64,000 nucleotides of DNA from NCBI GenBank assembly GCA_963783575.1, contig CAWAOD010000005.1, positions 544,001 to 608,000 of the forward strand, written 5' to 3'. Below the pieces are notes generated by a model. It made no database searches and was not told the origin of the DNA. It saw only the letters and a program-made list of their open reading frames with translations. Made by a program: the position numbers and the translations under genes. The stretch is from an uncultured Spirochaetota bacterium. Its GTDB lineage: Bacteria > Spirochaetota > Brevinematia > Brevinematales > JAOACQ01. Below are positions 44,351 through 63,214 of the stretch, one piece after another (position 1 is the first letter of the stretch; the number at the start of each line of letters is the position of its first letter).

Positions 44351-44779
44351 AAAATCTCCTTTACCAAAAGTCAAGTACTTCTGAATAAAAAATTCCAAAT
44401 CTATTAGTCTTAACTTTTTACCCGATTGTGTTTTTCCTTATTTTTCTTTCTTAACTAAAATTATCTCATATTATAAAGCTGTTGCAATTTTTTGCAATCA
44501 AAAAAGAATTTATTTTTTCATTTTGTTGGATAGTTTTTTATAACATATTTTCTTTTTAAACTTTTATAGAATAAACCTTTCTTAAAGGTAAATTTAAATA
44601 CAATTATATTATTTGACTTTTATAATTTATAATATTATGTTATGGAACAATTTAATAATAATAAGTAATATTGTTAATAGATGTATGAAACGTCAGTGTG
44701 TCTTAAGTTATAATTTCCTAAGCCGATTTAACACGCTATTATCAGAACTTTATTTATAAAATTTTTATGGGGATTCATT

Positions 44780-47898: not shown

Positions 47899-48720
47899 TC
47901 AGGCTGAAAACTTTAAATGAACAATATTAATTGACTTCCATTTATCAATAATTTTTATTGTCTTTATTGTATTTTGATCCCAGCTGTCTTCCATTTTAAT
48001 TTTTGAAAAAATTGGATATTGTTCCAATATCACTATTCTTTTATCCCATTTTTTTATTTTATTTATATTGTTAATTTTCCATTTTCCGGCTTCCGCTTTT
48101 TCCATTCCTATGCGTTTCATTGTAGTATATGCTATAAATGTAGTTACAATATTTTTACGTATTGTATTAAATATAATTTCACTTTCCGGAAAATTATCAG
48201 CTAAATCCGAAAAAAAATTTTTGACAATATTTTTATTAAAATAATCCAGAACACCGCCTGAAATAAACAGTACTCCATCTTTAACATTATCAATATATTT
48301 AATCCACCGTAAATCAAAAATAGATCCTTCAATGCAGTGAGAATTTTTTGTCTCGGGAATAAGTTTTTTTCGTATTTCAATAACATCAGGGAGATCAATA
48401 TCATACCAATTCAACTGTCCGTTATCAACTCGATAAAAAGTCGTGTCAAGGCCTGCTCCCAGATTTATAATCGCTGCTTTCGGATGATTTATCAAGAATT
48501 CATTTACGGTATTTTCAAGCATTTTTGCTCTTACTAGATGCATTATGTGAAGAGATTCGGGATAATATTTTTCTATTTTACTAAAATCATATTGTATTTT
48601 ATCAACGATATCAATTGCTTTTAAATCAATGAGAATAGAATTTTTTTCCCTGCTTAATTTTGCGCGGCTCCATAAAGGTAATAATAACGTTTCCTGAATA
48701 CCATCCAAATTTATTTTCAT
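47899..48720 (-). CDS. Class I SAM-dependent methyltransferase (leucine carboxyl methyltransferase/TcmP-like)
   Basis: QETLLLPLWSRA, INLGAGLDT, WYDIDLPDVI. Confidence 0.88.
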   Translation of the reverse strand: MKINLDGIQETLLLPLWSRAKLSREKNSILIDLKAIDIVDKIQYDFSKIEKYYPESLHIMHLVRAKMLENTVNEFLINHPKAAIINLGAGLDTTFYRVDNGQLNWYDIDLPDVIEIRKKLIPETKNSHCIEGSIFDLRWIKYIDNVKDGVLFISGGVLDYFNKNIVKNFFSDLADNFPESEIIFNTIRKNIVTTFIAYTTMKRIGMEKAEAGKWKINNINKIKKWDKRIVILEQYPIFSKIKMEDSWDQNTIKTIKIIDKWKSINIVHLKFSA

Positions 48721-48970: not shown

Positions 48971-49846
48971 ATGATGCAAAAAAGACATTTAAGTATATTT
49001 TTAAAACTTTTGCCTCTTCTGTTCCCTTTTCTGGCACTTGTAGCAACAGGTTTATGTTTTACCGTATTGCAGTCTTTCGGAATAGGAATGTTCGGGTACC
49101 ATTATTCATCGCCATTTTTTGCTTACAAAACGGTATTTTCAGAAAAATGGTTTGTTAATTCTTTCTTTTTTTCATTTTATGTGGCTATTGTATCCGCTTT
49201 GATCGCTACTGCTCTGGGGATACTTTTTTCCTGCTGGGTCTGGTCCTTACCAATTAAAATACGGCAATTTGCCGTTTTACAACGCATATTTCTGATCCTT
49301 CCGCATATTTCGGTAGCTTTCATTATCGTGATTCTTTTCAGCAGGACAGGGGTCTTATCCTCAATATTTTACCAGCTCCACCTGATCCAAAGAGCCGAAC
49401 AATTCCCTTCTTTTGTCTATTCAGGAAACGGGCTGGATGTTATCGCCGGTTACATATTCAAGGAAGTGCCGTTCGTTATGGTTATGGTTCTGGGAATACT
49501 GGCTAAATTGGATGTCCGGCAGGTCGAAACCGCCAGGATGCTTGGCGGAAATAACCGGATGATCTTTTTCCGCATTATACTGCCTTTTATAATGCCGGTT
49601 ACAAATACAGCCTTCCTGATAATTTTCATTTACAGTTTCGGCGCTTTTGATTTACCGTTTGTTCTTGGCGGCAGCTACCCCGGAATGATTTCTTTGAGGG
49701 TATACGAATACTATTTTCAAAGGGATTTATATTACCGGCCAATCGCAATGGCCATACTTACGCTGCTTTTCTTCTTTTCCCTCTTTTTTATATTGCTTTA
49801 TTCCCGGCTTGCGGAAAGACTTGAGAATGATGTGAGGAAGATATGA
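48971..49846 (+). CDS. ABC transporter permease (PotB-like; YnjC N-half-like)
   Basis: Multi-TM; LPHI, KEVPF, ETARMLG EAA-like motif, FGAFDLP. Confidence 0.85.
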   Translation: MMQKRHLSIFLKLLPLLFPFLALVATGLCFTVLQSFGIGMFGYHYSSPFFAYKTVFSEKWFVNSFFFSFYVAIVSALIATALGILFSCWVWSLPIKIRQFAVLQRIFLILPHISVAFIIVILFSRTGVLSSIFYQLHLIQRAEQFPSFVYSGNGLDVIAGYIFKEVPFVMVMVLGILAKLDVRQVETARMLGGNNRMIFFRIILPFIMPVTNTAFLIIFIYSFGAFDLPFVLGGSYPGMISLRVYEYYFQRDLYYRPIAMAILTLLFFFSLFFILLYSRLAERLENDVRKI

Positions 49847-50640
49847 AAAAAGGATGGGCTGAAGTATGGATTCCCGTTATTATTTTTAACGCTGTCTTTA
49901 CCTTTCCGGGACTGGTACTTGTCTTTTATACCTTCTCCTCAATGTGGAAATTCCCGGAGATAATACCGGGGCGTTATGATTTCCACAGTTTCAATTATCT
50001 ACTGAAAGAAGCCCCGGGAATAATAAAAAGCCTCGCCTCTTCTTTAATTTATTCGATCTGTTCAGTTGCAGCCACATTTGTCATATCTGTTTTACCGGCA
50101 TCTGTTTTTGCCCGCTACAGCTTTCCTTTCCGCAGACTTCTCGAAGGATTATTCCTTGCGCCGGCATTGATACCTTCCATGGCTTTTTCTATGGGAATCC
50201 ATATCTTATTCATTAAAGCGGGACTTTCCGATACTCTAACCGGAGTTGTAATTGTATTGTCGATTGTTAATTATCCTTATATGCTGAGGGCGCTGACAGC
50301 CGGTTTTCAATCTTATGGATTCTCTTATACCGAATGTGCTGGGAATCTTGGAGCCGGCTTTTTCCAGACCCTCCTTGAAGTGGAAATCCCTCTTTTAATA
50401 CCGGCCATTGTTTCCGGCGGATCTGTTGTTTTTCTTATTTCCTTCTCTGAGTATTTCCTTGTATTTCTTATAGGCGGGGGCAGCGTTCCTTCCTATACGG
50501 GTTATTTATTCCCTCTTCTCAATTCTTCGGATAGGAGCACGGCTTCATTATTAACTTTGATCTTCCTCATTCTTCCCGTTATGCTTTTTTTTCTAATTGA
50601 TTTAATGGTAATGCGGATTTATAGAAAAAAAGGGATATAA
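49843..50640 (+). CDS. ABC transporter permease (PotC-like; YnjC C-half-like)
   Basis: WKFPEIIP, ECAGNLGA EAA-like motif, FLISFSEYF..LIGGG. Confidence 0.85.
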   Translation: MKKGWAEVWIPVIIFNAVFTFPGLVLVFYTFSSMWKFPEIIPGRYDFHSFNYLLKEAPGIIKSLASSLIYSICSVAATFVISVLPASVFARYSFPFRRLLEGLFLAPALIPSMAFSMGIHILFIKAGLSDTLTGVVIVLSIVNYPYMLRALTAGFQSYGFSYTECAGNLGAGFFQTLLEVEIPLLIPAIVSGGSVVFLISFSEYFLVFLIGGGSVPSYTGYLFPLLNSSDRSTASLLTLIFLILPVMLFFLIDLMVMRIYRKKGI

Positions 50641-50655
50641 TAAAGTCTCCGGCCC

Positions 50656-51858
50656 CTATTTTCCAAGGACTTCCCGGCTCCAGCCATCCTCGAGTTTTTC
50701 AACATAAGCCGAAGGTATTTCAGGAACGCCGTTCTTCGCCAGTATTTCAAGCGGAAGCGTTGCCTCTCCGAGATCAAGCTTATGGAAGTTATTCTGCCAT
50801 TCGCTAGAAAGCCGCTTAATATCGAGGACGGTAAAATCCCCCCAATTTTTAGGTTCATTCTTGGAATACTGGGCTTCGGGAGACATTAAAAAATTAGCGA
50901 CCATCATGGCACCCGCTTTATTCCGCGCGTTATAAGCGATCGCGGTAAAATGAGTATTGAATATGGAACAATCCTGCATTACAGTAGTCCTGACTGTTGA
51001 AGGATAACGGCCTTCTATAATCCGGTTCTGAGCATCGGCCTGGTGGTACGACATATTGAAATCCACTTCTCCCCTTTCAAAAAGAGTATCGAGAGCGGCT
51101 ATATCCTTCGGATATGTTTTTCCCTCCTGCCATAGGAAGGGTTTCATATCGTTCAGATATTTCCAGAGGCTTTTTGTCTTTTCTTTAAAAAGATTTTCGT
51201 CATAACCCTTCATATATTGCATAAATCCCCCGGTCGAGGCGTAAAAAGCCTGCCGGATAAATGCCGAGCCCGTGAAGTCCGGAGGCTGGGGATATGTAAA
51301 ACGGCCGTGGTTTTTCTTAACCCATGCGAGCAATTCCGAAAAATTTTTTGGAGGATTCCCGATCTTTGCCGAATCGTACTCAAAAACGAATTGCGCCCTT
51401 CCATATGGAGCTTCAAAGCCTTTAACAGGATAACCGAAATCAAATTCAACCGATACGGGATCAACATAATTTTTGAAATTTGGCAGTTTTTGAGTAAATG
51501 GCCCAAAAAGAAGCCCGTTTTCCATAGCATCGCGAAAATTTTCACCGTTAATCCATACCAGGTCGATCGTACCGCTTGATTTTCCGGCCTGTTTCTCACT
51601 TAGAAGCTTATTTACAAATACTCTTGCATCAGCAGGAACCCTGACAAGGTTAATCTCATAACGCGATTTTACTTCCTTCGTAACATATTCGTCTATCCAT
51701 AGATTAATACTTGCGGATCCTCCCCACATATAAAAATTTACCGTAGTATTCCTGGCTGCTTTTTCAATTTCATCATAATTCTTTGAAAGCCAATCGGTGT
51801 CAAAATGCTTAGAGCAGGAACCGAATAAAACCAATAATAAAACAAAAAGTTTTTTCAT
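50656..51858 (-). CDS. ynjB: YnjB-like ABC substrate-binding lipoprotein
   Basis: Lipobox; VNFYMWGGS..IN, DLVWINGENF, GRFTYPQPPDFTGSAF, NTHFTAI..NA, ANFLMSPEAQ, WGD motifs typical of YnjB. Confidence 0.85.
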   Translation of the reverse strand: MKKLFVLLLVLFGSCSKHFDTDWLSKNYDEIEKAARNTTVNFYMWGGSASINLWIDEYVTKEVKSRYEINLVRVPADARVFVNKLLSEKQAGKSSGTIDLVWINGENFRDAMENGLLFGPFTQKLPNFKNYVDPVSVEFDFGYPVKGFEAPYGRAQFVFEYDSAKIGNPPKNFSELLAWVKKNHGRFTYPQPPDFTGSAFIRQAFYASTGGFMQYMKGYDENLFKEKTKSLWKYLNDMKPFLWQEGKTYPKDIAALDTLFERGEVDFNMSYHQADAQNRIIEGRYPSTVRTTVMQDCSIFNTHFTAIAYNARNKAGAMMVANFLMSPEAQYSKNEPKNWGDFTVLDIKRLSSEWQNNFHKLDLGEATLPLEILAKNGVPEIPSAYVEKLEDGWSREVLGK

Positions 51859-51878
51859 ATTTCCTCCCGACTCACCCC

Positions 51879-53229
51879 CATAAGCGCTAACTTGTTAAGG
51901 AAAAATATTCCACAATTTGCATTTTTCTTCTTCTCTTTTTATTAATAAGTCCTCTGGAAATTCTTATCCAATTTATAAAAATACCGGTAAGCGAAAGGCA
52001 TGGAATAATTACTCTCTGCATTTCATGAAGCATAAATGCAAATTCACGCCAACGGCTTACTATCCCTGCCCTGATTAATAATATCATAACCCCAGGGGGA
52101 AAAAGTCTGGGCTTGCCAGATAAGTTTGTCGTTTAACAGGGCCACAAACAATTTGCCATACAGCCAAGCCTTGGAACTTTCATCTGTATATTTAGGCAAA
52201 TGCCCAAGTTCCGCAAGTTGCTTAAAACGTTTAAATACTAATTCAACCTGCCATCGTAATCTATACCATCGCAGTATTTCTGCCGGCGGAAAACTTGACT
52301 CTTCAAAAGTTGTGAATACAATCACAAACTCCGCATATATTAGTGTCTCCGGTTTTAACTTCTGACTCTTTTTTATAGCATGCTTTTTAATACGTTTGTG
52401 AGCCTTAAGAATAGCTTGTTCAGATTTTCTTATAACACAAACTCTACCGGAAACAGTGGTTTTATCAGGGCATTGTAAATGAACATTCCATGAACATGCT
52501 TGTCCCGATTTCGAAACTTCTGATAATCTATCCAGCCAATTAAATGGCTTACCGGATGAATCGCTAACTACAACATGATGAGGGCTGATGCGGACCAATA
52601 GAGAAGCTTTCTGCTCAACGGCAAACTTTATTCCCGGAGCCTGACCATAACCTCGATCACCTATAATATAATCACCCGGTTTCAAATCAAATTGTTTAAA
52701 CGACTCACCCGTCCCTATACCGTTCATTTGAGTTACGCGAAAGTAGTCACACTTGAATGTAGGTAGTCTAAGACTGTAATGAACCTTCCATAAACTTCCC
52801 GTCCTTCCAGGTTCTTTAACTACAGTAGCATCAAGAAGGCGAACTTCAAATCCATCTTTATTTTCCAGTTTCACACCTCGCTCCTCAAATAAACCTTCAC
52901 ATAATGACGCCAACCAATCCGAACTCTTTCTTAATCGCTTCAGCAAGGCAACATCAGATAAATCTGCTAAATTGGCTTCACGAGCCCTTACTACTGTTTC
53001 TCTTAGAGAAAACCCGCCAGCCAGATGAATCAAAAGGGTTCTGAGCAAGTCCTCCTCAGATTTGCACTTACGCAATCCCCTTAATGCACCCGTTTCCTTT
53101 GCCTTTTCACGCCAACCTATTGGAAACATTGAAACTAAAATATTCCAATCTTCATTAATCATAGCCACCTCCATATAAATATTATAGCTATGATTTGTAA
53201 AAATATCAAGAATCAAGTTAGCGCTTATG
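51879..53229 (-). mobile_element. IS4-family (IS186/IS421-like) insertion sequence, 1351 bp
   Basis: Perfect 16-bp IRs CATAAGCGCTAACTTG / CAAGTTAGCGCTTATG; 4-bp CCCC target duplication; internal promoter TTGATA-17-TATAAT (53209-53181). Confidence 0.92.
52044..53162 (-). CDS. IS4 family transposase (IS186-like)
   Basis: LSDVALLKRLR, LLDAT, GDRGY, YRLRWQVELVFKRFK (YREK motif). Start ATG 53162 after GGAGG. Confidence 0.93.
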   Translation of the reverse strand: MINEDWNILVSMFPIGWREKAKETGALRGLRKCKSEEDLLRTLLIHLAGGFSLRETVVRAREANLADLSDVALLKRLRKSSDWLASLCEGLFEERGVKLENKDGFEVRLLDATVVKEPGRTGSLWKVHYSLRLPTFKCDYFRVTQMNGIGTGESFKQFDLKPGDYIIGDRGYGQAPGIKFAVEQKASLLVRISPHHVVVSDSSGKPFNWLDRLSEVSKSGQACSWNVHLQCPDKTTVSGRVCVIRKSEQAILKAHKRIKKHAIKKSQKLKPETLIYAEFVIVFTTFEESSFPPAEILRWYRLRWQVELVFKRFKQLAELGHLPKYTDESSKAWLYGKLFVALLNDKLIWQAQTFSPWGYDIINQGRDSKPLA

Positions 53230-53276
53230 CCCCCCTTCCCCCTCTCTTTGGTAAAGAGAGGGGGAAGGGGGGTGAG
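53230..53276. repeat. REP-like G/C-run palindrome (left tip displaced to 51871-51878 by the IS)
   Basis: CCCCCCTTCCCCCTCTCTTT-GGT-AAAGAGAGGGGGAAGGGGGGTGAG; CTCACCCC on the far side of the IS completes a 24-bp stem. Confidence 0.85.
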
Positions 53277-53280
53277 AATT

Positions 53281-54225
53281 TCAATCCTCTATATTAAGCC
53301 TCAATTTTACGCGATCACCGGCCCTGATCCCGCCATGAATACGGTAAACTGTGCAAATCCAGTCTTCAATTGAAACACGGTATATGATAAAATGACCTGC
53401 AAAACGCACTTCCTCGACAATGCCGGGTCCCATGTCATCTTTTTCTATGGTAAATGACTCGGCCCTGGCATAAATTTCCGACCGCTCTTTCAAATTGCTT
53501 TTATTAATTCCAAGGATATTATGAAGTTTTTCCGGTATGATATTTACATGTCCTAGAAAATCCGCCACTTCTAGGGACACGGGACGATTATAGACTTCAT
53601 AAACGGAATCATACTGGCAAAGCACTCCTCCTATCATAATACCAATCCTATCCGAAATCATAAAAGCTTCCTGAAGGTCATGCGTAACAAGGAGAGTGGT
53701 GATTTTAAATTCCTTCTGAGTTTTCCGGATAAAATCCGCCATTTCGAACTTAAGGTTTTTATCCAGGTTGGCAAAAGGCTCATCTAAAAGTAAAAGCTCA
53801 GGGCTTAGCACCATAGCCCGGGCTATGGCAACCCGCTGCTTCTGCCCGGCAGAAAGCTCGGCAGGATATGAGCTTGATTTTTCAAAAATTCCAAAATGCT
53901 TGAGGATCTCTTGCACCTTAATCCGAATATCTTTTTTGTTTTCATGCCGGGCACGAAGGCCGAACGAGATATTGTCAAATACGTTCATGGTAGGGAAAAG
54001 AACATAGTCCTGAAAAACAAGTATCGCCGAAAAATTATTTTGTTTTTCAATGCTTCCGGCATCAGGATTTTCCAATCCCGCAATAATTTTAAGAAGCGTG
54101 GTTTTCCCTGCTCCCGAAGGGCCGATAATTGAAACCAGCTGTGCTTCATCTACGGCAAAACAAATATCTTTTAAAACGGACTTTCCATTATACTGCTTGC
54201 AAAGTCCTTCTACTTTAAGAACCAT
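53281..54225 (-). CDS. ABC transporter ATP-binding protein (PotA/YnjD-like)
   Basis: GPSGAGKT, VFQDYVLFP, LSAGQKQR, LLLDEPFANLD; C-terminal TOBE-like region. Confidence 0.92.
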   Translation of the reverse strand: MVLKVEGLCKQYNGKSVLKDICFAVDEAQLVSIIGPSGAGKTTLLKIIAGLENPDAGSIEKQNNFSAILVFQDYVLFPTMNVFDNISFGLRARHENKKDIRIKVQEILKHFGIFEKSSSYPAELSAGQKQRVAIARAMVLSPELLLLDEPFANLDKNLKFEMADFIRKTQKEFKITTLLVTHDLQEAFMISDRIGIMIGGVLCQYDSVYEVYNRPVSLEVADFLGHVNIIPEKLHNILGINKSNLKERSEIYARAESFTIEKDDMGPGIVEEVRFAGHFIIYRVSIEDWICTVYRIHGGIRAGDRVKLRLNIED

Positions 54226-55208
54226 TCAGCCTCGCTTAAGTAAGACTTTATTTTCTTAAAAGTCGCTTCGTTTTTAATAGGCCTGGGAAGATGGACATAT
54301 TCATAATACGCCATATAACACCAGGACATAGCCCTCAAAAGAATTACGCTTTCTGTCAATAATGTCCTCTCCTGTAAAATTTCAAGACTGACACCAGGTA
54401 AAGCCCGTGAATGGTAACTTTTCAGGAAAAGCCTCTTTTCATCATCCGAAAAACGGTAATTTATTTTCCAGAGCGTTGTCGTTGCAACAAGAAAATGAGC
54501 AAGATCCAGATATCGGTATGAAAACACCGCCTTTTCCCAGTCGACCAGGCAGCTTTTATTTTCCCCGATTATAAAATTATGAGAGTTTACTTCCGTATTC
54601 ACAACACATAAAGATTCACCCTCAAAAATTCGGCCCGGATCCTCAAACCTCTTAACCAGCCGGTCATGATAATTAAGAAGAAGGTTATAAACACCGGGAT
54701 ATTCTACGGCCGGGTATTTTTCAAGCATCCTTATGCTCTCGGACATAACTTCATCAAAAGGATCACTCTGAATGATCAATTCTCCTTTCCTCAGGACGCC
54801 GTGGATTTTTGCGAAAATAAAAGCCGCCCGGTCAACGTCTTTTGTATAATCCAGGGGCCTTCCCTCAATATATTCCTCCAGTAATACGCCATTAAACACT
54901 ATGCCATTGTTCATTGTTCCAATAACTGCTTCAGGGTTTTCAGTATTAAATTCTTTATCATAATAAAAGGCGCGAGGCGTCACGCCGGTTTCTTCAATGA
55001 GTTTTAATGTCTTAAACTCGTATTCAATCTGGCTTGAAAGTCCAAGCTGGCTTCCCTGGTTTATCCGGAAAACGTATATTCCCGATTTATCAATGATGCG
55101 GTAATTAGTGTTGTACTCGCCGGAGGCTAAAAATTCCACATTCTGTATGGCCGATAGCCAGCCTTTCCTTTCGGCAAATTCTTTAATCGATTCCGGAATA
55201 TCAGCCAT
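54210..55208 (-). CDS. Aminoglycoside phosphotransferase / choline kinase family protein
   Basis: ASGEYNTNY P-loop region, VFRIN, Brenner-like VNTEVNSHNF, LVDWEKA, DLAHF. Confidence 0.82.
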   Translation of the reverse strand: MADIPESIKEFAERKGWLSAIQNVEFLASGEYNTNYRIIDKSGIYVFRINQGSQLGLSSQIEYEFKTLKLIEETGVTPRAFYYDKEFNTENPEAVIGTMNNGIVFNGVLLEEYIEGRPLDYTKDVDRAAFIFAKIHGVLRKGELIIQSDPFDEVMSESIRMLEKYPAVEYPGVYNLLLNYHDRLVKRFEDPGRIFEGESLCVVNTEVNSHNFIIGENKSCLVDWEKAVFSYRYLDLAHFLVATTTLWKINYRFSDDEKRLFLKSYHSRALPGVSLEILQERTLLTESVILLRAMSWCYMAYYEYVHLPRPIKNEATFKKIKSYLSEAEWFLK

Positions 55209-55335
55209 TTTTTATTATGCCTCACCTGAAATTTTCTTATTATAGTTTTCATAAAAATTAATTGCAAAATTTATTGATGTTCAATTATTGAATGATTACT
55301 ATTTAATATAGAATTGGCAATAAAGGAGGTATTTT

Positions 55336-56073
55336 ATGCCAAAAGATAAAGTTTCTTATTGGATTACATTACCGGGTTTTATTGTGGCTGTCATTTCCGC
55401 GCTTATCTCACTCATGGCGGGGATAGGAACGAGATTTGACTGGTGGTTTTTCCGAACGGGGCTCACTATCATCGCCGCTTCTGCATTTGTAGGAATAGCG
55501 GGCATTGTTATTTCACTCATAGGAATAATAGCCGTGATTTTTTTGAAAGTAAAAAAGGGTTTAACATATACGATCTTGGGGCTTGTTATCAGCCTTTTAG
55601 TAGCTGGAGGTCCCTGGTCTATGATGAAAATCGCGAAATCTGTACCCCCCATTCATGACATTACCACAGACATGGCTAATCCTCCCCAGTTTTCGGCGGT
55701 ATTAACTCTTCGGAAAAATGCCGTAAATCCGCCCGAATACGGGGGAGCAGTAATCGCGGCTCAGCAGGAAAAAGCCTACCCTGATATCAAACCATTGATT
55801 CTGAATATACCGGCGGACCAGGCTTTTGATAAGGCGCTGAAAACGGCCCAAAAGATGAAATGGAGTATTGTCTCGACAAACCGGGAGGGTGGGATTATTG
55901 AAGCGACAGCAACAACCTTCTGGATGGGCTTTAAGGACGATATTGTCATCCGGATCGCGGTAAAAGACACAGGCAGTCTCCTTGATATCAGGTCCGAATC
56001 CCGTGTCGGAAAGGGAGATTTCGGTGCAAACGCGAAAAGGTTAAGGAGATTTTTAAAAGAAATGCAGAAATAG
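55336..56073 (+). CDS. DUF1499 domain membrane protein
   Basis: 3 N-terminal TMs; PPIHDITTD, Q..AYPDIKP, GFKDDIVIR, DIRSESRVGKGDFGANAKR. Confidence 0.85.
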   Translation: MPKDKVSYWITLPGFIVAVISALISLMAGIGTRFDWWFFRTGLTIIAASAFVGIAGIVISLIGIIAVIFLKVKKGLTYTILGLVISLLVAGGPWSMMKIAKSVPPIHDITTDMANPPQFSAVLTLRKNAVNPPEYGGAVIAAQQEKAYPDIKPLILNIPADQAFDKALKTAQKMKWSIVSTNREGGIIEATATTFWMGFKDDIVIRIAVKDTGSLLDIRSESRVGKGDFGANAKRLRRFLKEMQK

Positions 56074-56092
56074 AAATCTTAAAGGATGTAAA

Positions 56093-56800
56093 ATGACGAT
56101 TTCTGTTATCATTCCGGTTTATGGGGAAGAAGATAAAATCAATGAAATAATAAGCAGACTGAAGGAACAGGCGAATTATTCAGCCTGCGAAATTGAGGTA
56201 GTTTTTTGCAGAACGGATGAAGGAGTAGAACTTAGCGGGCTTGAATCAACCGGTTCACAAATGAAGATCAGGTTTGTTATGTCGGGAAAAGGCCGGGGGT
56301 TACAGATGAATACAGGAACGAAAGCCTCGGCAGGCGATGTTCTGCTTTTTCTGCATGCGGACAGCGTTCTGCCAGATAATGCGTTTGGAAAGATAAAATC
56401 TGCGCTTTCCGATACTGCGATATCCGGGGGTGCTTTCTCTCTCAGGATTGACGTAAAACATCTTTTTTTAAAAGCAGTATCCGCTGTTACAAACCTTCGC
56501 TGCCGGTTAAACCGTATTCCTTACGGCGATCAGGCTTTTTTTATAAGAAAAGATATCTTTGATAAAATCGGCGGATTTAAAGAAATACCGATCATGGAGG
56601 ATGTGGAGCTTATGCGCCGTATCAGAAATGCAGGGTTAAAGATTGCAATACTGAAGGATAAAGTTACGACTTCTGCAAGGCGCTGGGAGAAAGAGGGCTT
56701 TTTTTACACAACAATACGCAACAGGTTTCTTTCGCTTCTTTATACGTTTGGAGTTAAGCCGGAAAAGCTTGCAAATTATTACAGGCCGCATTCGGATTAA
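56093..56800 (+). CDS. TIGR04283-type GT2 glycosyltransferase (rSAM/selenodomain- or arsenosugar-associated transferase 2)
   Basis: ISVIIP, GRGLQMNTG, LLFLHAD, PYGDQAFFI, IPIMEDVEL, TTSARRW. Confidence 0.87.
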   Translation: MTISVIIPVYGEEDKINEIISRLKEQANYSACEIEVVFCRTDEGVELSGLESTGSQMKIRFVMSGKGRGLQMNTGTKASAGDVLLFLHADSVLPDNAFGKIKSALSDTAISGGAFSLRIDVKHLFLKAVSAVTNLRCRLNRIPYGDQAFFIRKDIFDKIGGFKEIPIMEDVELMRRIRNAGLKIAILKDKVTTSARRWEKEGFFYTTIRNRFLSLLYTFGVKPEKLANYYRPHSD

Positions 56801-56810
56801 GGCAGGAATT

Positions 56811-57485
56811 ATGAAAGATAAAGGGATTATACTATTCCTGAAATATCCCGAAGCAGGAAAAGTCAAGACCCGGATAGGGGCCGAGCTTGGGGATGATTTT
56901 ACGGTAGTTCTTTACAAAAAATTTGTGTCGGACATTTTAAAAAAGATTTCATCACTTGAGCCGGATTTGATTATTTATTTTACACCCATGGAAAAGCAAA
57001 AAGAAATCGCTGATTGGCTCGGTTATTCCTTACCTGTTATTCCCCAGTCCGGGAATAATGTCGGTGAAAGGATGCGCAGCGCTTTCCGTGAGCAATTTAT
57101 GGCTGGTTACAGCAGGCTGATCCTTATAGGAAGCGATATTCCCCATATTCCTTCAATATACCTGTTAAACGCATTGAATTTTCTGGAAAATAAGATCCCG
57201 GTTATCGGACCGGCTTCCGATGGGGGATATTACCTGATCGGGTTTAACCGTAATAATTTTCTGCCTTCCGTATTCGAGGGCATCAATTGGAGCACCGGTT
57301 CGGTCTTTACAGAAACTATTACGGCTTTTGAGAAATATGGGTTTAAACCCTCGGTTTTACCGGTATTGAGCGACATCGATACGGCGGACGATTTAAGAAA
57401 AATCCTCCGTGAATATGAAATGTCGGAACTGCCCGAAACTTCTCGTTTCTGGAACCGGGAAAAAGGAAGAATTTATGGACCCTAA
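56811..57485 (+). CDS. TIGR04282/DUF2064-type CofC-like transferase (rSAM/selenodomain- or arsenosugar-associated transferase 1)
   Basis: KYPEAGKVKTR, Q.G..GERM, IGSDIP, IGPASDGGYYLIG, I.WST, DIDT..DL. Start moved to ATG 56811. Confidence 0.87.
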   Translation: MKDKGIILFLKYPEAGKVKTRIGAELGDDFTVVLYKKFVSDILKKISSLEPDLIIYFTPMEKQKEIADWLGYSLPVIPQSGNNVGERMRSAFREQFMAGYSRLILIGSDIPHIPSIYLLNALNFLENKIPVIGPASDGGYYLIGFNRNNFLPSVFEGINWSTGSVFTETITAFEKYGFKPSVLPVLSDIDTADDLRKILREYEMSELPETSRFWNREKGRIYGP

Positions 57486-58272
57486 AACTTTATCCGGTAT
57501 TATCTCATTTTTTTCAGTATTTATTCTGGAAAGGTCTTTTCCGCATTATTCCGGAAGACTTCACCATTCGCGCCACACTTTGTATAATCTCTCTATAACA
57601 CTATTGAATGGAATCCTGGGCCGGTTTATTTTTTTGAGTGTGAATATCCTGATCTTCAGTTTTATTGGATTGAAGCGGGCCGGTTTAATTTATTTATTTC
57701 CTCTGCCATATCTGCCGAGGGCGGCAATTGCGTTGCTCCTGTTTGATCTCTGGATGTACTTCTGGCACCTCGCCAATCACCGTATACCTTTATTCTGGCT
57801 TTTTCACCGCGCCCACCATAATGATCCAGAGATGGACGCCTCGACAAGCCTGCGCCTGCATCCGGTTGAGATATGCTTTTCATCGGTAATCCGGCTGCCG
57901 GTTTTTTTGTTGATAGGTATGGATGTTTCAATGCTTGCCATTTATGAATCCGTACTCATGGTCTCTATTTTATTTCATCACAGTAATATTTCATTACCGG
58001 TAAAGGCAGATAAGATTCTGAGGATTTTTATCGTTACACCGGATATGCACCGGATGCATCATTCTATTAATCCGGATGAAATAAACTCAAACTATTCGTC
58101 GATTATCTCCATCTGGGACAGAATATTCAATACTTTTACAAAATGGGGGAACACAAAAGCCATGCCGCTGGGGCTTCGTGTTTTCAGGGAGAAGAAGTGG
58201 CAGACACCCTTGGGAATCCTGGCGGTACCTTTTATGGGAGAAAATAACGGAGGGAACAATGGAAAAGAATGA
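57475..58272 (+). CDS. Sterol desaturase / fatty acid hydroxylase family protein
   Basis: His boxes WHLANH, FHRAHH, FHHSN, HRMHH; NYSS..IWDRIF. Start ATG 57475. Confidence 0.9.
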   Translation: MDPKTLSGIISFFSVFILERSFPHYSGRLHHSRHTLYNLSITLLNGILGRFIFLSVNILIFSFIGLKRAGLIYLFPLPYLPRAAIALLLFDLWMYFWHLANHRIPLFWLFHRAHHNDPEMDASTSLRLHPVEICFSSVIRLPVFLLIGMDVSMLAIYESVLMVSILFHHSNISLPVKADKILRIFIVTPDMHRMHHSINPDEINSNYSSIISIWDRIFNTFTKWGNTKAMPLGLRVFREKKWQTPLGILAVPFMGENNGGNNGKE

Positions 58273-59749
58273 TTTTGATGTCATAGTAATCGGGGGAGGG
58301 GCGGCGGGCATTTCTGCCGTAAAAACGGCCCACGGGTTTGGAAAAAAAACCGCGATAGTTGAGAACAAAAAACTCGGAGGGGAATGCACATGGAACGGAT
58401 GTGTTCCGAGTAAGGCGCTGATTCATGCTGCCGATAAAGCATTTTCCATCAAATCTGAGGCAATAATGGCTGGCAGGAATGTCTCCGAATTTATATCCGC
58501 GGAGGGTTTAACCAAAGGAGGCATGGCCTCTGAAGAAAAGGTAAAAAAAGCCCTGAAATATGTGGAAAAAGTAATACAAAATGTCTATTCCGAAGAAAAT
58601 CCTGAAAGCTTTGAAAAAGCAGGAATCACCGTAATAAAGGGGAAAGCCGTTTTTATCGACAGCCGGACAATTTCAGTTGATGGAAAAAAGCTTAGGGCAG
58701 CCAGGTTCATAATTGCGGCGGGCTCTTCTCCATTTATACCTCCTGTTGAAGGTATAGATAAAGTCCCATATTATACCAATGAAAGCATTTTTGAAATGAC
58801 TGAAATACCTTCCTCGATGATAGTCCTTGGAGGCGGCCCGATAGGGATTGAGCTGGCGCAGGCTTTTGGCCGACTGGGCGTAAAAATAACTGTCGTTGAG
58901 ATGCTTGAGCGCATACTTTTCAGGGAAGATCCCGAACTTACCGGTCTTCTGGAATCACGCCTGCGTTCGGAAGGGATCACACTCCTGACGGGAACGAAGG
59001 CTCTTAAATTTGAGCCGGGTGACGACGGTGTCTCATTGATCATTGAAAATAAACAGAAGGAAAAACAGATGATCTCAGGCCGGGCCGTACTTGTGGCGGT
59101 GGGACGAAGGCCGAATATTGAAGGGCTTAATCCGGATAATGCACGTATAAAATTTACAAAACAGGGAATATTGGTAAACGCTTATCTCCAGACAAGCCAG
59201 CCTAATATTTATGCCTGCGGCGACATTGTCGGCCCGTATTATTTCAGCCATGTGGCCGGGTACCAGGGCATTACGGCCGGAATAAACGTTTCGATCCCCT
59301 TCCGCAGGAAGGCCGACTACAGCCAGGTTCTCTGGACTACTTATTCCGATCCTGAATTGGCAAGGGCCGGGTTGACTGAAGCCGAGGCTAAAGAAAAATT
59401 TGGAAAATCCGTTAGGGTATACAGGGTGCCTTACTCCAAACTCGACAGGGCTAAAACCGAAAGCAGGGAAGAAGGTCTTGCCAAATACATCCTCAATAAA
59501 AAAGGCAGGCTGATCGGGGCCCACATTTTTGGCCATCTTGCCGGTGAATTGATCCACGAGGCGCAATTGGCCCGCGTTTTGAAATTCAATTTTACCCGCC
59601 TTCAATCCGTTATGCATGCCTACCCGTCTTATTCTGATATCATACGGCAGGCCTCTAGGGACGCTTACCTGTATAGAATCCGCAGCAACCCGGTTGTAAA
59701 ACTGGCAGTCCGGCTGGCAGGTCTCTTTTCCGCAAAAAAGGAGAAATAA
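58259..59749 (+). CDS. Class I pyridine nucleotide-disulfide oxidoreductase (LpdA/MerA-like, no MerA Cys pair)
   Basis: IGGGAAG, LGGECTWNGCVPSK redox disulfide, GGGPIGIELAQ, C-terminal HAYPSYS. Start ATG 58259. Confidence 0.88.
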   Translation: MEKNDFDVIVIGGGAAGISAVKTAHGFGKKTAIVENKKLGGECTWNGCVPSKALIHAADKAFSIKSEAIMAGRNVSEFISAEGLTKGGMASEEKVKKALKYVEKVIQNVYSEENPESFEKAGITVIKGKAVFIDSRTISVDGKKLRAARFIIAAGSSPFIPPVEGIDKVPYYTNESIFEMTEIPSSMIVLGGGPIGIELAQAFGRLGVKITVVEMLERILFREDPELTGLLESRLRSEGITLLTGTKALKFEPGDDGVSLIIENKQKEKQMISGRAVLVAVGRRPNIEGLNPDNARIKFTKQGILVNAYLQTSQPNIYACGDIVGPYYFSHVAGYQGITAGINVSIPFRRKADYSQVLWTTYSDPELARAGLTEAEAKEKFGKSVRVYRVPYSKLDRAKTESREEGLAKYILNKKGRLIGAHIFGHLAGELIHEAQLARVLKFNFTRLQSVMHAYPSYSDIIRQASRDAYLYRIRSNPVVKLAVRLAGLFSAKKEK

Positions 59750-60445
59750 ATGAAACGCTGGGCAAAACCCCTGATCTTTTTCGGTATTTTAATTGTGATT
59801 TTTATCTTAATCCGTTTTACAAAAATCGGCGCTATCCTGACCTTTGAAAATCTAATGCATTCAAGAGAAGCTGTTAAAAATTTCGTTTCTTTTCACTACT
59901 TAATTTCGGTTTTAATTTTCATTGCCATATACATTATCGTAACGAGTTTTTCCATACCCGGCGCGCTTATTCTGACATTGTCCGGAGGATTTCTTTTCAG
60001 CACCGTTCCCGGTGCTTTATTTGTGAATGTCGGAGCGACAATCGGGGCCTGCAACGCTTTTCTTGCCTCACGCTATTTTCTTGGGGATTTTGTTCAGGAA
60101 AAATATGCTGATAAATTATCCGGTTTTAACTCAGAGATAAAGTCAAACGGGGCAGGCTATCTTCTGACATTACGTTTTATACCGGTTTTTCCATTCTTTC
60201 TTATCAATCTTCTTGCCGGATTGACAAAGGTCCGATTTTTTACATTTTTCTGGACAACATCGGCAGGCATTTTACCCGCTTCACTGGTCTATACTTACAC
60301 GGGCAGCAACCTGGCCGAATTGAAATCGGTTTCAGGCATATTTTCATGGAAAATATTATCCGTTCTCATCCTGCTTGGGGTTTTCTCGATACTTCCAGGT
60401 TTTTTAAAAAAGATTTTCCGAAAAAATAATTTAAGGAGTAATTGA
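59750..60445 (+). CDS. TVP38/TMEM64 (DedA superfamily, YdjX/YdjZ-like) membrane protein
   Basis: SIPGALILTL.GG, GATIGA..AFLASRY, LRFIPVFPFFLIN, GILP..YTYTG. Confidence 0.9.
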   Translation: MKRWAKPLIFFGILIVIFILIRFTKIGAILTFENLMHSREAVKNFVSFHYLISVLIFIAIYIIVTSFSIPGALILTLSGGFLFSTVPGALFVNVGATIGACNAFLASRYFLGDFVQEKYADKLSGFNSEIKSNGAGYLLTLRFIPVFPFFLINLLAGLTKVRFFTFFWTTSAGILPASLVYTYTGSNLAELKSVSGIFSWKILSVLILLGVFSILPGFLKKIFRKNNLRSN

Positions 60446-60455
60446 GGAGGTTTGT

Positions 60456-60905
60456 ATGCGTAAAATTTTGTTTAATATTTTAGTTGGGGTGGCGGTCACA
60501 TCTCAAAGCCAGGGTAAGATAACCCTTGGTGTTGTTGACGGAAAACTTGCCCCCTGTCCTGCTTCACCGAACTGCGTTTCCACACAGGCCGATCCTTCGG
60601 ACAAGGAGCATTATATTCAGCCTATACATTATGCAACAGCCCGTCAGCAGGCGAAAGAAACCCTTTTATCGGCAATTATGGAAATAAAAAAAGTCACCGT
60701 CATAACAAACACCGATGACTACATTTACGCTGAATTCCGGACGGCCCTGATGAATTTTACCGATGATGTGGAATTTTATTTTCCCGAGAATGAGCCTGTG
60801 ATCTATTTCCGTTCCGCTTCCCGCATAGGTTACGGGGATATGGGCACAAACCGTAAAAGAATGGAAGATGTCAGGAAACGCTTCATGCAGAAAATAAAAT
60901 TATAA
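60456..60905 (+). CDS. Exported DUF1499 domain protein
   Basis: LAPCPASPNCVSTQ, FTDDVEF, RSASRIGYGDMGTNRKR. Confidence 0.88.
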   Translation: MRKILFNILVGVAVTSQSQGKITLGVVDGKLAPCPASPNCVSTQADPSDKEHYIQPIHYATARQQAKETLLSAIMEIKKVTVITNTDDYIYAEFRTALMNFTDDVEFYFPENEPVIYFRSASRIGYGDMGTNRKRMEDVRKRFMQKIKL

Positions 60906-60971: not shown

Positions 60972-61014
60972 AATACACCACACTGTCACTAAAAACAGTG
61001 TGGTGTATTTTATT
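60972..61014. terminator. Intrinsic terminator between convergent genes
   Basis: AATACACCACACTGT-CACTAAAA-ACAGTGTGGTGTATT followed by a T-rich tract. Confidence 0.85.
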
Positions 61015-61039: not shown

Positions 61040-62098
61040 TTATTTGCTGAACCTTGCCCTTTCATCAAGAGGCACAAGCAGTATTACAATTCTCCTGTTC
61101 TGTGCCCTGCCTTCCTCAGTATCATTTGAAGCGATCGGGTTGTATTTCCCATACCCCGTCGCTTTCATAAGTGAAGGATTTACACCCTGCGATTCCAGGA
61201 ACCGGACAATGGTCGTTGCCCTGGCTGTTGACAATTCCCAGTTGGATGGATATTTCCATTTATATTTATCCGCAATCGGCACATTGTCAGTGTATCCTTC
61301 CACCCTGATCTGTTTATCTGTGATGTTCTTCAAATCTTTTGAAATTCTCTGCAGTACTTTTTCTCCGTTTTTCTTGATATCGGCTCTCCCCGAATCAAAG
61401 AATATTTTATCGAGAAAATCGATGCTGAGCTGGTCGCTCAACTGTTTGATCTTGACATCGCCGTTAGCGATTTCATCTTTAAATTCCGCCGTTAGATTGC
61501 TTGATGTTGCTGTTAATCTTGCTATTTCGGCGTCCTTCTGCGCCGTGATATTGGAATTTTCAGTCGAAATGGATTCCAATCTTTTTTCCAGCCCTGCTAT
61601 CTCATTGTCTTTTGAATTGATCTGATCCTGCAGGGCTTTCATCTTCTGATCGTTATCCTTCATGGTTGCATTCAGGCTGTCGATCTGTTTTCCGAGTACG
61701 CCTTTTTCGTTATTAACAGTGTTTTTCATACTTAAATAATCGTTACTCAGCTTTGATATTGTTTTCATTAAAGCATTATTCTGAACCTGCAGCGTGCCAA
61801 GCTGCTCCTTATCCAGATCCCTGTCTTTATTCAGGCTGTCAATTTCAGCAGCCGAATTGGAATAATCATCCTGAAGCTTGGCAAGCTGATCTTTAAGCCC
61901 GGCGTTCTGAATCAGTGAATTAGAATAGTCGCTCTGAAGACCGGCAAGCTTCGAGCTCAGGTCCTTGTTCTGTGAGGCCAGGCTGGCGTTTTCTTCCTGC
62001 AGTTTTGCCGATTCATCAGGCTTCACAGCGGCCTTTGAACATCCTATAAATAGTATAAGTATTAAAGTTACAATAATAATATACAATGATCTTATCAT
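61040..62098 (-). CDS. Coiled-coil lipoprotein with OmpA/MotB-like peptidoglycan-binding domain
   Basis: Lipobox FIGC; long heptad region; IFFDSG.A, VEGYTDNVPI, SNWELSTARA, AQNRRIVI. Confidence 0.88.
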   Translation of the reverse strand: MIRSLYIIIVTLILILFIGCSKAAVKPDESAKLQEENASLASQNKDLSSKLAGLQSDYSNSLIQNAGLKDQLAKLQDDYSNSAAEIDSLNKDRDLDKEQLGTLQVQNNALMKTISKLSNDYLSMKNTVNNEKGVLGKQIDSLNATMKDNDQKMKALQDQINSKDNEIAGLEKRLESISTENSNITAQKDAEIARLTATSSNLTAEFKDEIANGDVKIKQLSDQLSIDFLDKIFFDSGRADIKKNGEKVLQRISKDLKNITDKQIRVEGYTDNVPIADKYKWKYPSNWELSTARATTIVRFLESQGVNPSLMKATGYGKYNPIASNDTEEGRAQNRRIVILLVPLDERARFSK

Positions 62099-62181
62099 AT
62101 AAACCTCCTATGATAAAAATTTCATATAAAAATCATGTTTTGTTCATTATAATCTCATTTCCAAATTAAATATTGTTCCAA

Positions 62182-63018
62182 TTATTTATTCTCGATCTCA
62201 CTCAATTGATAAACCTCTTTATCAACTATTACAATCTGTATCCTTCTGTTCCTTGACTTTCCTTCATCTGTATCATTTGGAGCAATCGGCCTGTATTCAC
62301 TGTAAGAGATTGCTGAAAGTCCGCTGGGATTCAGGCCCTCTTTTTCCTGCAGGTACCTTACAACATTAATAGCCCTTGCCGCGCCTAATTCCCAGTTTGT
62401 AGGATATTTAGCCCTCAGTTCCGATCTTATCGGCACATTGTCAGTATGCCCTTCTATTCTTATGACCTTACCGGTCAGCTGTTTGAAAACAGGGGCAATT
62501 TTATGAAGAAATGTTTCCCCGGCTGGTTTTATGACCGCTTCACCGGAATCAAAAAATATCTTTTCTTTAATGTAAACTGTAATAGCGTTATTTATCACAT
62601 CAAGCTGGATATCTCCGGAGGCTATTTCATCCTTCATTTTATTTTTCAGGTCATTGTAAACAACATCTCCGCGGTAGGCTTTCTTCATTAAAATATCTTT
62701 TTCCGCCTGATCCGCGTCTTTTAACCTTTTGATCTGGTCAATAAGAGAAGCATTAGCTTTTGACAACCTTTCCAGATCAGCGGCAGCAGCCCCTGACTTG
62801 GTAAGCCGGTCAAGCTCAGCCTGGCTGTTGCTCAGATCAGTTTCAAGTTTTTGAGTGTAAGCCTCGAGATCGGCGATCCTTTCCTGCGCCTTTGTGTCCT
62901 CATTTGCCGCAGGCGGATTTGCGGTTACAACCGGTTTAACCTCGGGTTTCTGCGTTCCGCATCCTGCGAATGTCAGTATTCCTATAATACCGGCAACTAG
63001 AACTAAATACTTCTTCAT
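62182..63018 (-). CDS. Coiled-coil lipoprotein with OmpA/MotB-like peptidoglycan-binding domain
   Basis: Lipobox FAGC; IFFDSGEA, IEGHTDNVPI, TNWELGAARA, SRNRRIQI. Start ATG 63018. Confidence 0.88.
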   Translation of the reverse strand: MKKYLVLVAGIIGILTFAGCGTQKPEVKPVVTANPPAANEDTKAQERIADLEAYTQKLETDLSNSQAELDRLTKSGAAAADLERLSKANASLIDQIKRLKDADQAEKDILMKKAYRGDVVYNDLKNKMKDEIASGDIQLDVINNAITVYIKEKIFFDSGEAVIKPAGETFLHKIAPVFKQLTGKVIRIEGHTDNVPIRSELRAKYPTNWELGAARAINVVRYLQEKEGLNPSGLSAISYSEYRPIAPNDTDEGKSRNRRIQIVIVDKEVYQLSEIENK

Positions 63019-63214
63019 AATCAATTACCTCCAAATTATTTTTGTATTATTTGATTATATTCTTTATCAGTTTCCATAGATTACTGCCTTTCCAATAATC
63101 TATTTTTAATATTATTAAAAACTTGTCAGAAAGGCAAGTAAGTAATATGAAATATAATATATTTATCCATCCCTTAATATCTGATAATAAATAATTGATA
63201 ATCATAACAGCTCC

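Follow-up and report, generated by a model that had tools for sequence, protein, structure and literature searches.

What might the transferases of an ArsS cassette be doing in a genome where neither ArsS nor ArsM is found? The question is raised by a gene cluster at positions 48,971 to 60,905 of a 64,000-nucleotide stretch, here called the window, of contig CAWAOD010000005.1 (positions 544,001 to 608,000 of the forward strand, assembly GCA_963783575.1), from an uncultured Spirochaetota bacterium of the Brevinematales. In this cluster a YnjBCD-type ABC importer and a predicted kinase lie beside an arm that carries a TIGR04283 glycosyltransferase, a TIGR04282 predicted nucleotidyltransferase and accessory membrane and redox proteins (Table 1). 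The cluster is real and conserved, a variant of the ArsS cassette for which no earlier description was found and whose mechanism can be tested; its tie to arsenic is one of association. We suggest, tentatively, that it would salvage a 5-substituted ribose or riboside, most likely a dimethylarsinoyl one, which would be phosphorylated at C1, nucleotide-activated, moved to a phospholipid and flipped.

Profile searches of this 89.85% complete genome found neither arsS (TIGR04167; best 38 bits, cut-off 300) nor arsM (NF008823; best 79 bits, cut-off 263) over cut-off, in agreement with the initial annotation, which had described the cluster as lacking both; no TIGR04169 ortholog was found there, and tblastn with four ArsS proteins returned nothing in the genome at E 1e-4. 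Compared with the ArsM/ArsS cassette (TIGR04167, TIGR04283, TIGR04282, TIGR04169), the window has both transferases over cut-off, and an importer and a kinase in place of arsS, arsM and TIGR04169. In 20 ArsS neighbourhoods the VTT protein, the flavin reductase, the desaturase and DUF1499 recur together with TIGR04169 (accessory genes at L144, L148, L154 and L155), so that the right arm of the cluster is the standard cassette without ArsS. The accessory genes, earlier read as redox and oxidative tailoring, are not special to this cluster and also flank YnjF-type importers. Clustering of the neighbours at these 20 loci gave no phosphorylase or hydrolase recurring beside arsS. We also note ArsM-like domains in frames of about 1100 amino acids adjoining TIGR04282/3 (G249:C189:24185-24793 and G127:C72:7678-8277), possibly a large fusion enzyme.

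The arrangement is conserved in anaerobic bacteria of the sediment type. A search with the kinase gave 686 homologues with E values up to 1e-10; the best 80 of 471 confirmed loci were examined, to which all counts out of 80 refer; counts out of 50 concern genomes chosen from these 80 for long contigs and spread, and counts out of 55 add the window's genome and four more. ABC genes are present at 69 of the 80 loci, a nucleoside hydrolase at 6 and TIGR04282/3 alone at 5, with ABC genes and hydrolase never together. Kinase, ABC genes and TIGR04282/3 share one locus in 14 cases, a recurrence which argues that the arrangement is not chance, and genome-wide TIGR04283 accompanies the kinase in 48 of 50 genomes (43 over cut-off) and TIGR04282, over cut-off, in 53 of 55; the joining of two separately known gene neighbourhoods, on which the original proposal was staked, thus occurs elsewhere. 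The 80 loci are labelled as Spirochaetota and desulfobacterial lineages, the closest being Brevinematales or Spirochaetota, and the four closest have the window's divergent layout with TIGR04282 and TIGR04283 fused. At L041, in Desulforhopalus vacuolatus DSM 9700, the kinase, ABC, TIGR04283 and TIGR04282 genes form an intact run. Among same-family genomes, 4 of 11 carry the kinase. DUF1499 and the desaturase are optional, at 4, 4 and 5 of the 80 loci (DUF1499 also in L007, L008, L015 and L018). A SelD-like gene, recognised by sequence, lies upstream of the kinase in L013, L014, L023, L024, L027 and L028, perhaps through shared ancestry.

If importer and kinase supply what ArsS otherwise supplies, the two should tend to exclude each other. 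ArsS is indeed mostly absent from kinase genomes, as had been expected (5/50), and ArsM is over cut-off in 11/55. An even sample of 281 genomes from one desulfobacterial phylum contained the kinase in 5, YnjB in 2, TIGR04283 in 144 and ArsS in 105, and TIGR04283 was present in 101 of the 105 ArsS genomes. The 144 of 281 serve as background to the 48 of 50 kinase genomes with TIGR04283. ArsS occurs in 7 of 35 desulfobacterial genomes with kinase and TIGR04283 against 98 of 139 TIGR04283 genomes without the kinase, for which the Fisher p of 1e-7 is overstated, kin not being independent and completeness not being given. The exclusion is statistical, not strict. In a quick tree of 80 TIGR04283 domains the kinase label needs 13 changes (at least 6 forced), that is, it is clustered but not one clade; kinase-linked enzymes are interleaved with ArsS-linked ones, and the window's enzyme has its highest identity (48%) to an ArsS-linked one. 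The product of ArsS is 5'-deoxy-5'-dimethylarsinoyladenosine, according to PMC13598754, and its sugar is blocked at C5. The word arsenosugar is a label that these families carry by association, and their tie to arsenic is through association with ArsS only.

The importer offers a second comparison. The window's YnjB protein is 39% identical to that of E. coli over 330 amino acids, and the E. coli ydjXYZ-ynjABCD-ynjE-ynjF region and YnjBCD-YnjF operons resemble the window in a YnjB over cut-off, permeases, ATPase and TVP38/DedA neighbours, and in many species also in the same reductase and desaturase; the window lacks YnjF, whereas E. coli lacks TIGR04282/3 (control searches). Twelve YnjBCD loci were picked, one from E. 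coli K-12 and 11 from a set of 78 plasmid records; in 11 of them YnjBCD, without the kinase, adjoins the CDP-alcohol phosphatidyltransferase YnjF, and VTT, the same reductase, DUF547 or desaturase are often nearby. The exception is the locus whose binding protein is most distant. YnjF occurs in none of the 80 kinase loci and reaches full score in 2 of 55 kinase genomes, three more having weak matches of 60-63 bits, and its best match in the window's genome is 31 bits as against 212 or more. Among 80 metagenome YnjB loci, the 43 of at least 8 kb (37 shorter ones were left out of the count) comprise 14 with the kinase (4 of them distant H-x-D forms), 10 with YnjF, none with both and 19 with neither. 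Given this alternation beside YnjBCD, a phospholipid is the likely end point of the ligand on both routes. In a FastTree of 62 rows, binding proteins linked to the kinase and to YnjF are interleaved. Arsenosugar phospholipids are phosphatidylglycerol ribosides, and the two gene sets would match the two ways of assembling one, from a nucleotide sugar and phosphatidylglycerol or from glycerol arsenoriboside and CDP-diacylglycerol. In a wider version, which we consider rather unlikely as a whole, many bacteria unable to make arsenosugars would scavenge them and deliberately build them into arsenosugar phospholipids, by two interchangeable routes that share one importer family. One would be YnjBCD with YnjF (E. 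coli, Klebsiella, Bacillus, roseobacters), needing a single step with CDP-diacylglycerol; the other would be YnjBCD with the Glu-base kinase and TIGR04282/3, as in the window. With a DedA flippase, a disulfide reductase and peroxidase-like partners common to both, the arsenic head group would serve the membrane as a redox buffer that can be recycled.

From the observed families, gene order, conservation, co-occurrence and alternation we infer the ligand, every reaction, the acceptor and the roles of the accessory genes. YnjBCD likely imports a C5-blocked ribose or riboside, with 5-dimethylarsinoyl-ribose as the most probable ligand, and the kinase likely converts the imported sugar to its 1-phosphate, importer and kinase together replacing ArsM and ArsS. 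TIGR04282 would activate the sugar 1-phosphate as a nucleotide sugar, from which TIGR04283 would transfer the sugar to a phospholipid, most simply phosphatidylglycerol, giving an arsenosugar phospholipid, or alternatively to a lipid phosphate. The TVP38/DedA protein would then move the product across the membrane, and the reductase would cycle the oxidation state of the 5-substituent. The order of import, phosphorylation, activation, transfer and flipping, likened earlier to the lic operon, fits; the genes read as tailoring are not specific to the cluster. The window shares with LicA, LicB, LicC and LicD the predicted functions of import, a choline-kinase-fold kinase, nucleotide activation and transfer, and has an ABC importer, a CofC-like activator and a GT2 enzyme instead of LicB, LicC and LicD. 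Of the two fates suggested for an environmental arsenosugar, salvage is favoured and dismantling is not, because the enzymes kept are those that activate and transfer. Lake biota contain free arsenoribose, glycerol arsenosugar and arsenosugar phospholipids (PMC7345539).

The kind of sugar is suggested by neighbouring genes. At 9 genome loci without importer the gene next after the kinase encodes a PF01156 nucleoside hydrolase, and this kinase-linked hydrolase clade scores at least 340 bits in 10 of 55 genomes. Ordinary nucleoside hydrolases pair with ribokinase, which needs a free C5; a hydrolase together with an APH-fold kinase is the pattern of MtnN and MtnK for C5-blocked ribose, and MtnN with MtnK, or 5'-methylthioadenosine (MTA) phosphorylase, yields a 5-substituted ribose-1-phosphate. 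The window differs from that pair in that its kinase has an N-x-E loop and does not match MtnK in sequence, in that the hydrolase of its relatives is of PF01156, and in that its product would go to lipid and not to methionine. A Rhodococcus plasmid operon (L281) unites a distant TIGR04282 relative (119 bits, cut-off 134) with MTA phosphorylase (443 bits, cut-off 306), an epimerase and a GT2 enzyme, and this gene content points to 5-substituted ribose-1-phosphate as a probable substrate of the TIGR04282 family; of three other distant TIGR04282 relatives, none has a phosphorylase within 6 kb and one is an arsS cluster. A Methylobacterium plasmid operon (L283:5962-9812) with a TIGR04282-labelled gene, GT87, radical SAM, GT2 and molybdopterin oxidoreductase is a candidate for another, as yet unexplored, 5-modified-sugar cassette.

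The same evidence admits a version without arsenic, in which 5-methylthioribose, its sulfoxide, 5-deoxyribose or a selenium analogue would be made into a glycolipid, in the manner of the mycobacterial methylthioxylose lipid donor. The actinobacterial methylthioxylose (MTX) cluster (L281) has in common with the window a DUF2064 protein and a GT2 enzyme and, as predicted for the window, a 5-substituted pentose that ends on a lipid; it differs in its GT2 clade, its epimerase and its phosphorylase and in having neither importer nor kinase, and MTA phosphorylase, epimerase and polyprenyl-phosphate GT2 are absent from the window's cluster. A lipid-linked 5-methylthio-pentose, methylthioxylose polyprenyl phosphate, is formed by MtxS (10.1101/2021.09.08.459334, PMC12088412). 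The operon that TIGR04282's relative shares with MTA phosphorylase, the MTA phosphorylase that the window's genome itself has, the YnjBCD-YnjF operons of E. coli, Klebsiella, Bacillus and Cetobacterium, and selenium- or sulfur-linked neighbours (the SelD-like gene at six loci, TIGR03169 and rhodaneses) all speak for such a version. Against it, the two transferases of the window exceed the ArsS-associated cut-offs and are placed among ArsS-linked enzymes by branching; the relative that goes with MTA phosphorylase scores below the cut-off of TIGR04282, and its GT2 is of another kind (TIGR04283 36 bits); with MTA phosphorylase present, a cell can obtain methylthioribose-1-phosphate without importer and kinase; and a depletion of ArsS from kinase genomes would be predicted only where the two yield one and the same product. 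We regard chemistry without arsenic as possible but on the unlikely side.

The catalytic loop of the kinase, NTEVNSHN as first reported, has N-T-E in place of the classical H-x-D, and N-x-E proves to be a trait of the family, found in all 80 kinase loci, a count that is partly circular in that the loop was among the scan patterns. Across all 44 aligned kinases there is no variation in the loop Asn and Glu or in the Asn, Asp and Glu that bind metal; the invariant positions are N204, E206, N208, N211 and D223-W-E-K, with N211, D223 and E225 at the metal- and ATP-binding positions. A protein-atlas search gave APH-family clusters only. When its structure model (pLDDT 90) was compared by fold, choline kinase came first (Z 22.4, root-mean-square deviation 3.3, 294 residues aligned), followed by LicA (Z 20.8), N-acetylhexosamine 1-kinase (Z 19.0) and MtnK (Z 17.4, deviation 4.5, 280 aligned). 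Judged on this predicted model, the fold does not settle the substrate, and the match to MtnK would reflect a shared superfamily only. The ranking would suit a Lic- or Kennedy-type pathway in which the kinase acts on a primary alcohol, be it choline-like or the glycerol arm of an imported arsenoriboside, and TIGR04282 activates the phosphate as CofC does three-carbon phosphates, the unit passing to diacylglycerol. The Pcs and Lic routes to phosphatidylcholine are a precedent, and one kinase-linked binding-protein row sits inside a YnjF clade (support 1.0 and 0.94), so that both may take the same alcohol. Such a pathway would, however, give no role to the GT2 enzyme, which is retained by 48 of 50 genomes and in many cases is fused with TIGR04282, and would leave unexplained both the hydrolase beside the kinase and the feeding of TIGR04282/3 in ArsS genomes without the kinase, for which reasons we think it unlikely.

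With Asp replaced by Glu and His by Asn, the N-x-E protein might instead be a pseudokinase, a sensor or binding subunit, beside an import arm that is decaying here and transferases that work on internal substrates. The state of the import arm invites this thought. An insertion sequence (IS) of the IS4 family (1351 bp, 16-bp terminal inverted repeats, transposase at 52044-53216) lies between ATPase and binding protein, and the permeases lie convergent with the binding-protein gene, whereas binding protein and permeases share a strand in 54 of 54 related loci holding both; IS insertion and inversion are unique to the window, which thus lacks the co-directional single operon of other YnjBCD systems. 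Neither the IS nor the inversion is in the initial annotation. Of the leftward run that it described, kinase, ATPase and YnjB are borne out and the continuity is not, and the adjacent permeases lie on the opposite strand, so that the divergent promoter cannot drive them; import may be impaired in this genome. The genome holds 11 copies of this active IS4 element at 99.4% identity or more. Several lie within REP-like, GC-rich hairpins, and target duplications of 11 bp flank some copies but not others, a pattern that suggests hairpin targeting and rearrangement between copies. No contig bridging IS and inversion was found in reads from the one low-coverage DNA run, and the inversion is unconfirmed there. 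Against a pseudokinase stand the invariant metal- and ATP-binding positions and, from other lineages, the H-x-D and N-x-D kinases found in the corresponding position next to YnjBCD (L212, L236, L258, L263, L272 and L269), which argue for a working, if predicted, kinase. Nor is decay evident: the import genes are full-length and single-copy, and their 61-73% identity to four close relatives (61-64% for permease A, with no clear acceleration) is in line with the 59-63% of reductase and VTT protein. A pseudokinase is in our view very unlikely.

Other YnjB loci widen the range of contexts. Some of the 19 loci with neither kinase nor YnjF hold sugar catabolism genes or an ADP-ribosylglycohydrolase, in keeping with sugar or riboside ligands. 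YnjBCD stands with Dak1/Dak2 kinases at L209:4231-7546, L233:1276-4998 and L276:909-4298, to which L209 and L276 add a xylose-isomerase-like enzyme and a DeoC/LacD aldolase; these loci are candidates for catabolism of the ligand, and L248 has an ADP-ribosylglycohydrolase with a hydrolase. Such genes would fit a dismantling or detoxification pathway, in which an imported arsenosugar would be degraded to yield carbon or phosphate, with the transferases working backwards or taking no part; none of them recurs in the 80 kinase loci, the conserved partners there being the activating and transferring enzymes common to de novo clusters, and dismantling seems to us very improbable. A separate YnjBCD clade (L236:9207-10067, L263:8068-9027, L272:9303-10142 and L267:2039-2965) carries a small radical SAM-like gene that is not ArsS, in 3 of the 4 loci with an H-x-D kinase, and is possibly another biosynthetic entry module. 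Two YnjF-type importer loci (L245:596-3244 and L250:5138-7483) have VTT, an LPG-synthase-like membrane protein and a GrdB-like protein.

To return to salvage of a C5-blocked arsenoribose, a number of observations weigh against it. The kinase-linked hydrolase is not found in the window's genome, so that a riboside ligand would need another cleaving enzyme, and two metagenome loci (L212 and L257) hold importer, kinase and hydrolase together. The genome's own MTA phosphorylase (290 bits, cut-off 275), on another contig, could feed methylthioribose-1-phosphate. The modelled kinase is nearer in fold to choline kinase than to methylthioribose kinase, whose model TIGR01767 has no match in the genome at E 1e-5, and with Glu for the catalytic Asp its activity is only predicted. 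ArsS occurs in 3 of the 5 kinase genomes of the random phylum sample and together with the kinase in 7 genomes; of the 139 TIGR04283 genomes without kinase, 41 are also without ArsS, so the TIGR04282/3 pair can have another feed, or assemblies are incomplete. No ars gene adjoins the kinase loci among the recurring neighbours, and one locus (L126) holds kinase and YnjF together. Finally, no test of TIGR04282/3 was found in a literature search whose scope excluded subscription papers and supplements.

That search, with a scope that may bear on novelty, likewise gave no account of the kinase cassette or of a YnjB ligand, and for E. coli YnjBCD and YnjF no substrate was found in the papers searchable; PMC9405208 and PMC2731931 mention ynjB in tables and PMC8801600 mentions TIGR04282 in passing. 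The alternating entry modules give a specific ligand class, a reaction order and cheap assays for the steps after ArsS and for the substrate of YnjBCD and YnjF, and salvage would assign a testable job to several orphan proteins, including the E. coli importer. A conserved kinase family with Glu for the catalytic Asp is of enzymological interest in itself. Should the arsenic reading be true, anaerobic sediment bacteria and enterobacteria would re-lipidate arsenosugars rather than only degrade them, and should the two routes be real as well, arsenic would be a sought-after lipid building block, including for gut bacteria exposed to dietary arsenosugars.

Table 1. Features of the cluster, in window coordinates.
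Feature	Coordinates	Strand	Basis and remarks
YnjC-type permease A	48971..49846	+	PF00528; inverted relative to relatives
YnjC-type permease B	49843..50640	+	PF00528; convergent with binding-protein gene, 15-bp gap
YnjB-family substrate-binding lipoprotein	50656..51858	-	NF008633, 530 bits, cut-off 203
IS4-family insertion sequence	51879..53229	-	NF033592, 124 bits, cut-off 115; not a pathway member
GC-rich hairpin, perfect 20-bp arms, at IS insertion point	53230..53272	.	sequence
YnjD-type ABC ATPase	53281..54225	-	PF00005; 16-bp overlap with kinase stop
APH/choline-kinase-fold kinase, N-x-E catalytic loop	54210..55208	-	PF01636, E 2e-10, 41 bits, cut-off 23
Divergent intergenic region, AT-rich, 127 bp	55209..55335	.	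sequence
Membrane-anchored DUF1499 protein	55336..56073	+	PF07386
TIGR04283 GT2 glycosyltransferase	56093..56800	+	226 bits, cut-off 182
TIGR04282/DUF2064 CofC-like predicted nucleotidyltransferase	56811..57485	+	183 bits, cut-off 134
Sterol desaturase/fatty-acid hydroxylase (FA_hydroxylase) family protein	57475..58272	+	PF04116; His boxes
Class-I flavin disulfide reductase, PRK06370-like	58259..59749	+	redox CxxxxC
TVP38/DedA (VTT) membrane protein	59750..60445	+	PF09335
Short DUF1499 protein	60456..60905	+	PF07386
Terminator-like hairpin, bidirectional, 16 pairs	60972..61009	.	sequence

All families named in the initial annotation (kinase, ATPase, YnjB, DUF1499, TIGR04283, TIGR04282 and others) were recovered by profile search, its divergent region has the length of 127 bp that it gave, and a terminator-like hairpin follows the right arm. 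The likely starts were used for TIGR04282, desaturase and reductase (56811, 57475 and 58259), intergenic gaps in the right arm run from -14 to +19 bp, and the divergent region has one leftward sigma-70-like match (10/12), which is no proof of function. The cluster genes are single-copy genome-wide, bar superfamily members of ATPase and reductase. The best model for the reductase is PRK06370, at 366 bits below its cut-off of 620, with CxxxxC intact; it is not identified as MerA (TIGR02053 328 bits, cut-off 454), and of its three Cys none is C-terminal, so that the C-terminal Cys pair of MerA is absent. The TIGR04282 protein has a relative in the Protein Data Bank, 3cgx. A single-sequence search gave no solved relative of the binding protein, whose matches to polyamine binders by profile are weak (best E 1e-5 over 80 positions) and whose score against the thiB model is 19 bits; its structure model, folded without alignment, was dropped at pLDDT 34. 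A link to arsenic through neighbouring GAPDH genes was also rejected, the window's GAPDH reaching 360 bits against a cut-off of 450 and that of L194 265, neither of the ArsJ type.

Three neighbours of the cluster deserve mention. A low-GC LCM-family methyltransferase gene (47899-48720, minus strand) is divergent from the inverted permeases over a 250-bp AT-rich gap, which may now supply the permease promoter. Two tandem genes for coiled-coil OmpA/MotB-like lipoproteins (61040-63024, minus strand) have the terminator hairpin in common with the cluster. Further away, 42152-44398 on the minus strand encodes a 748-amino-acid metallo-beta-lactamase-fold protein with two cNMP-binding domains and a weak match to Apyc1 below cut-off.

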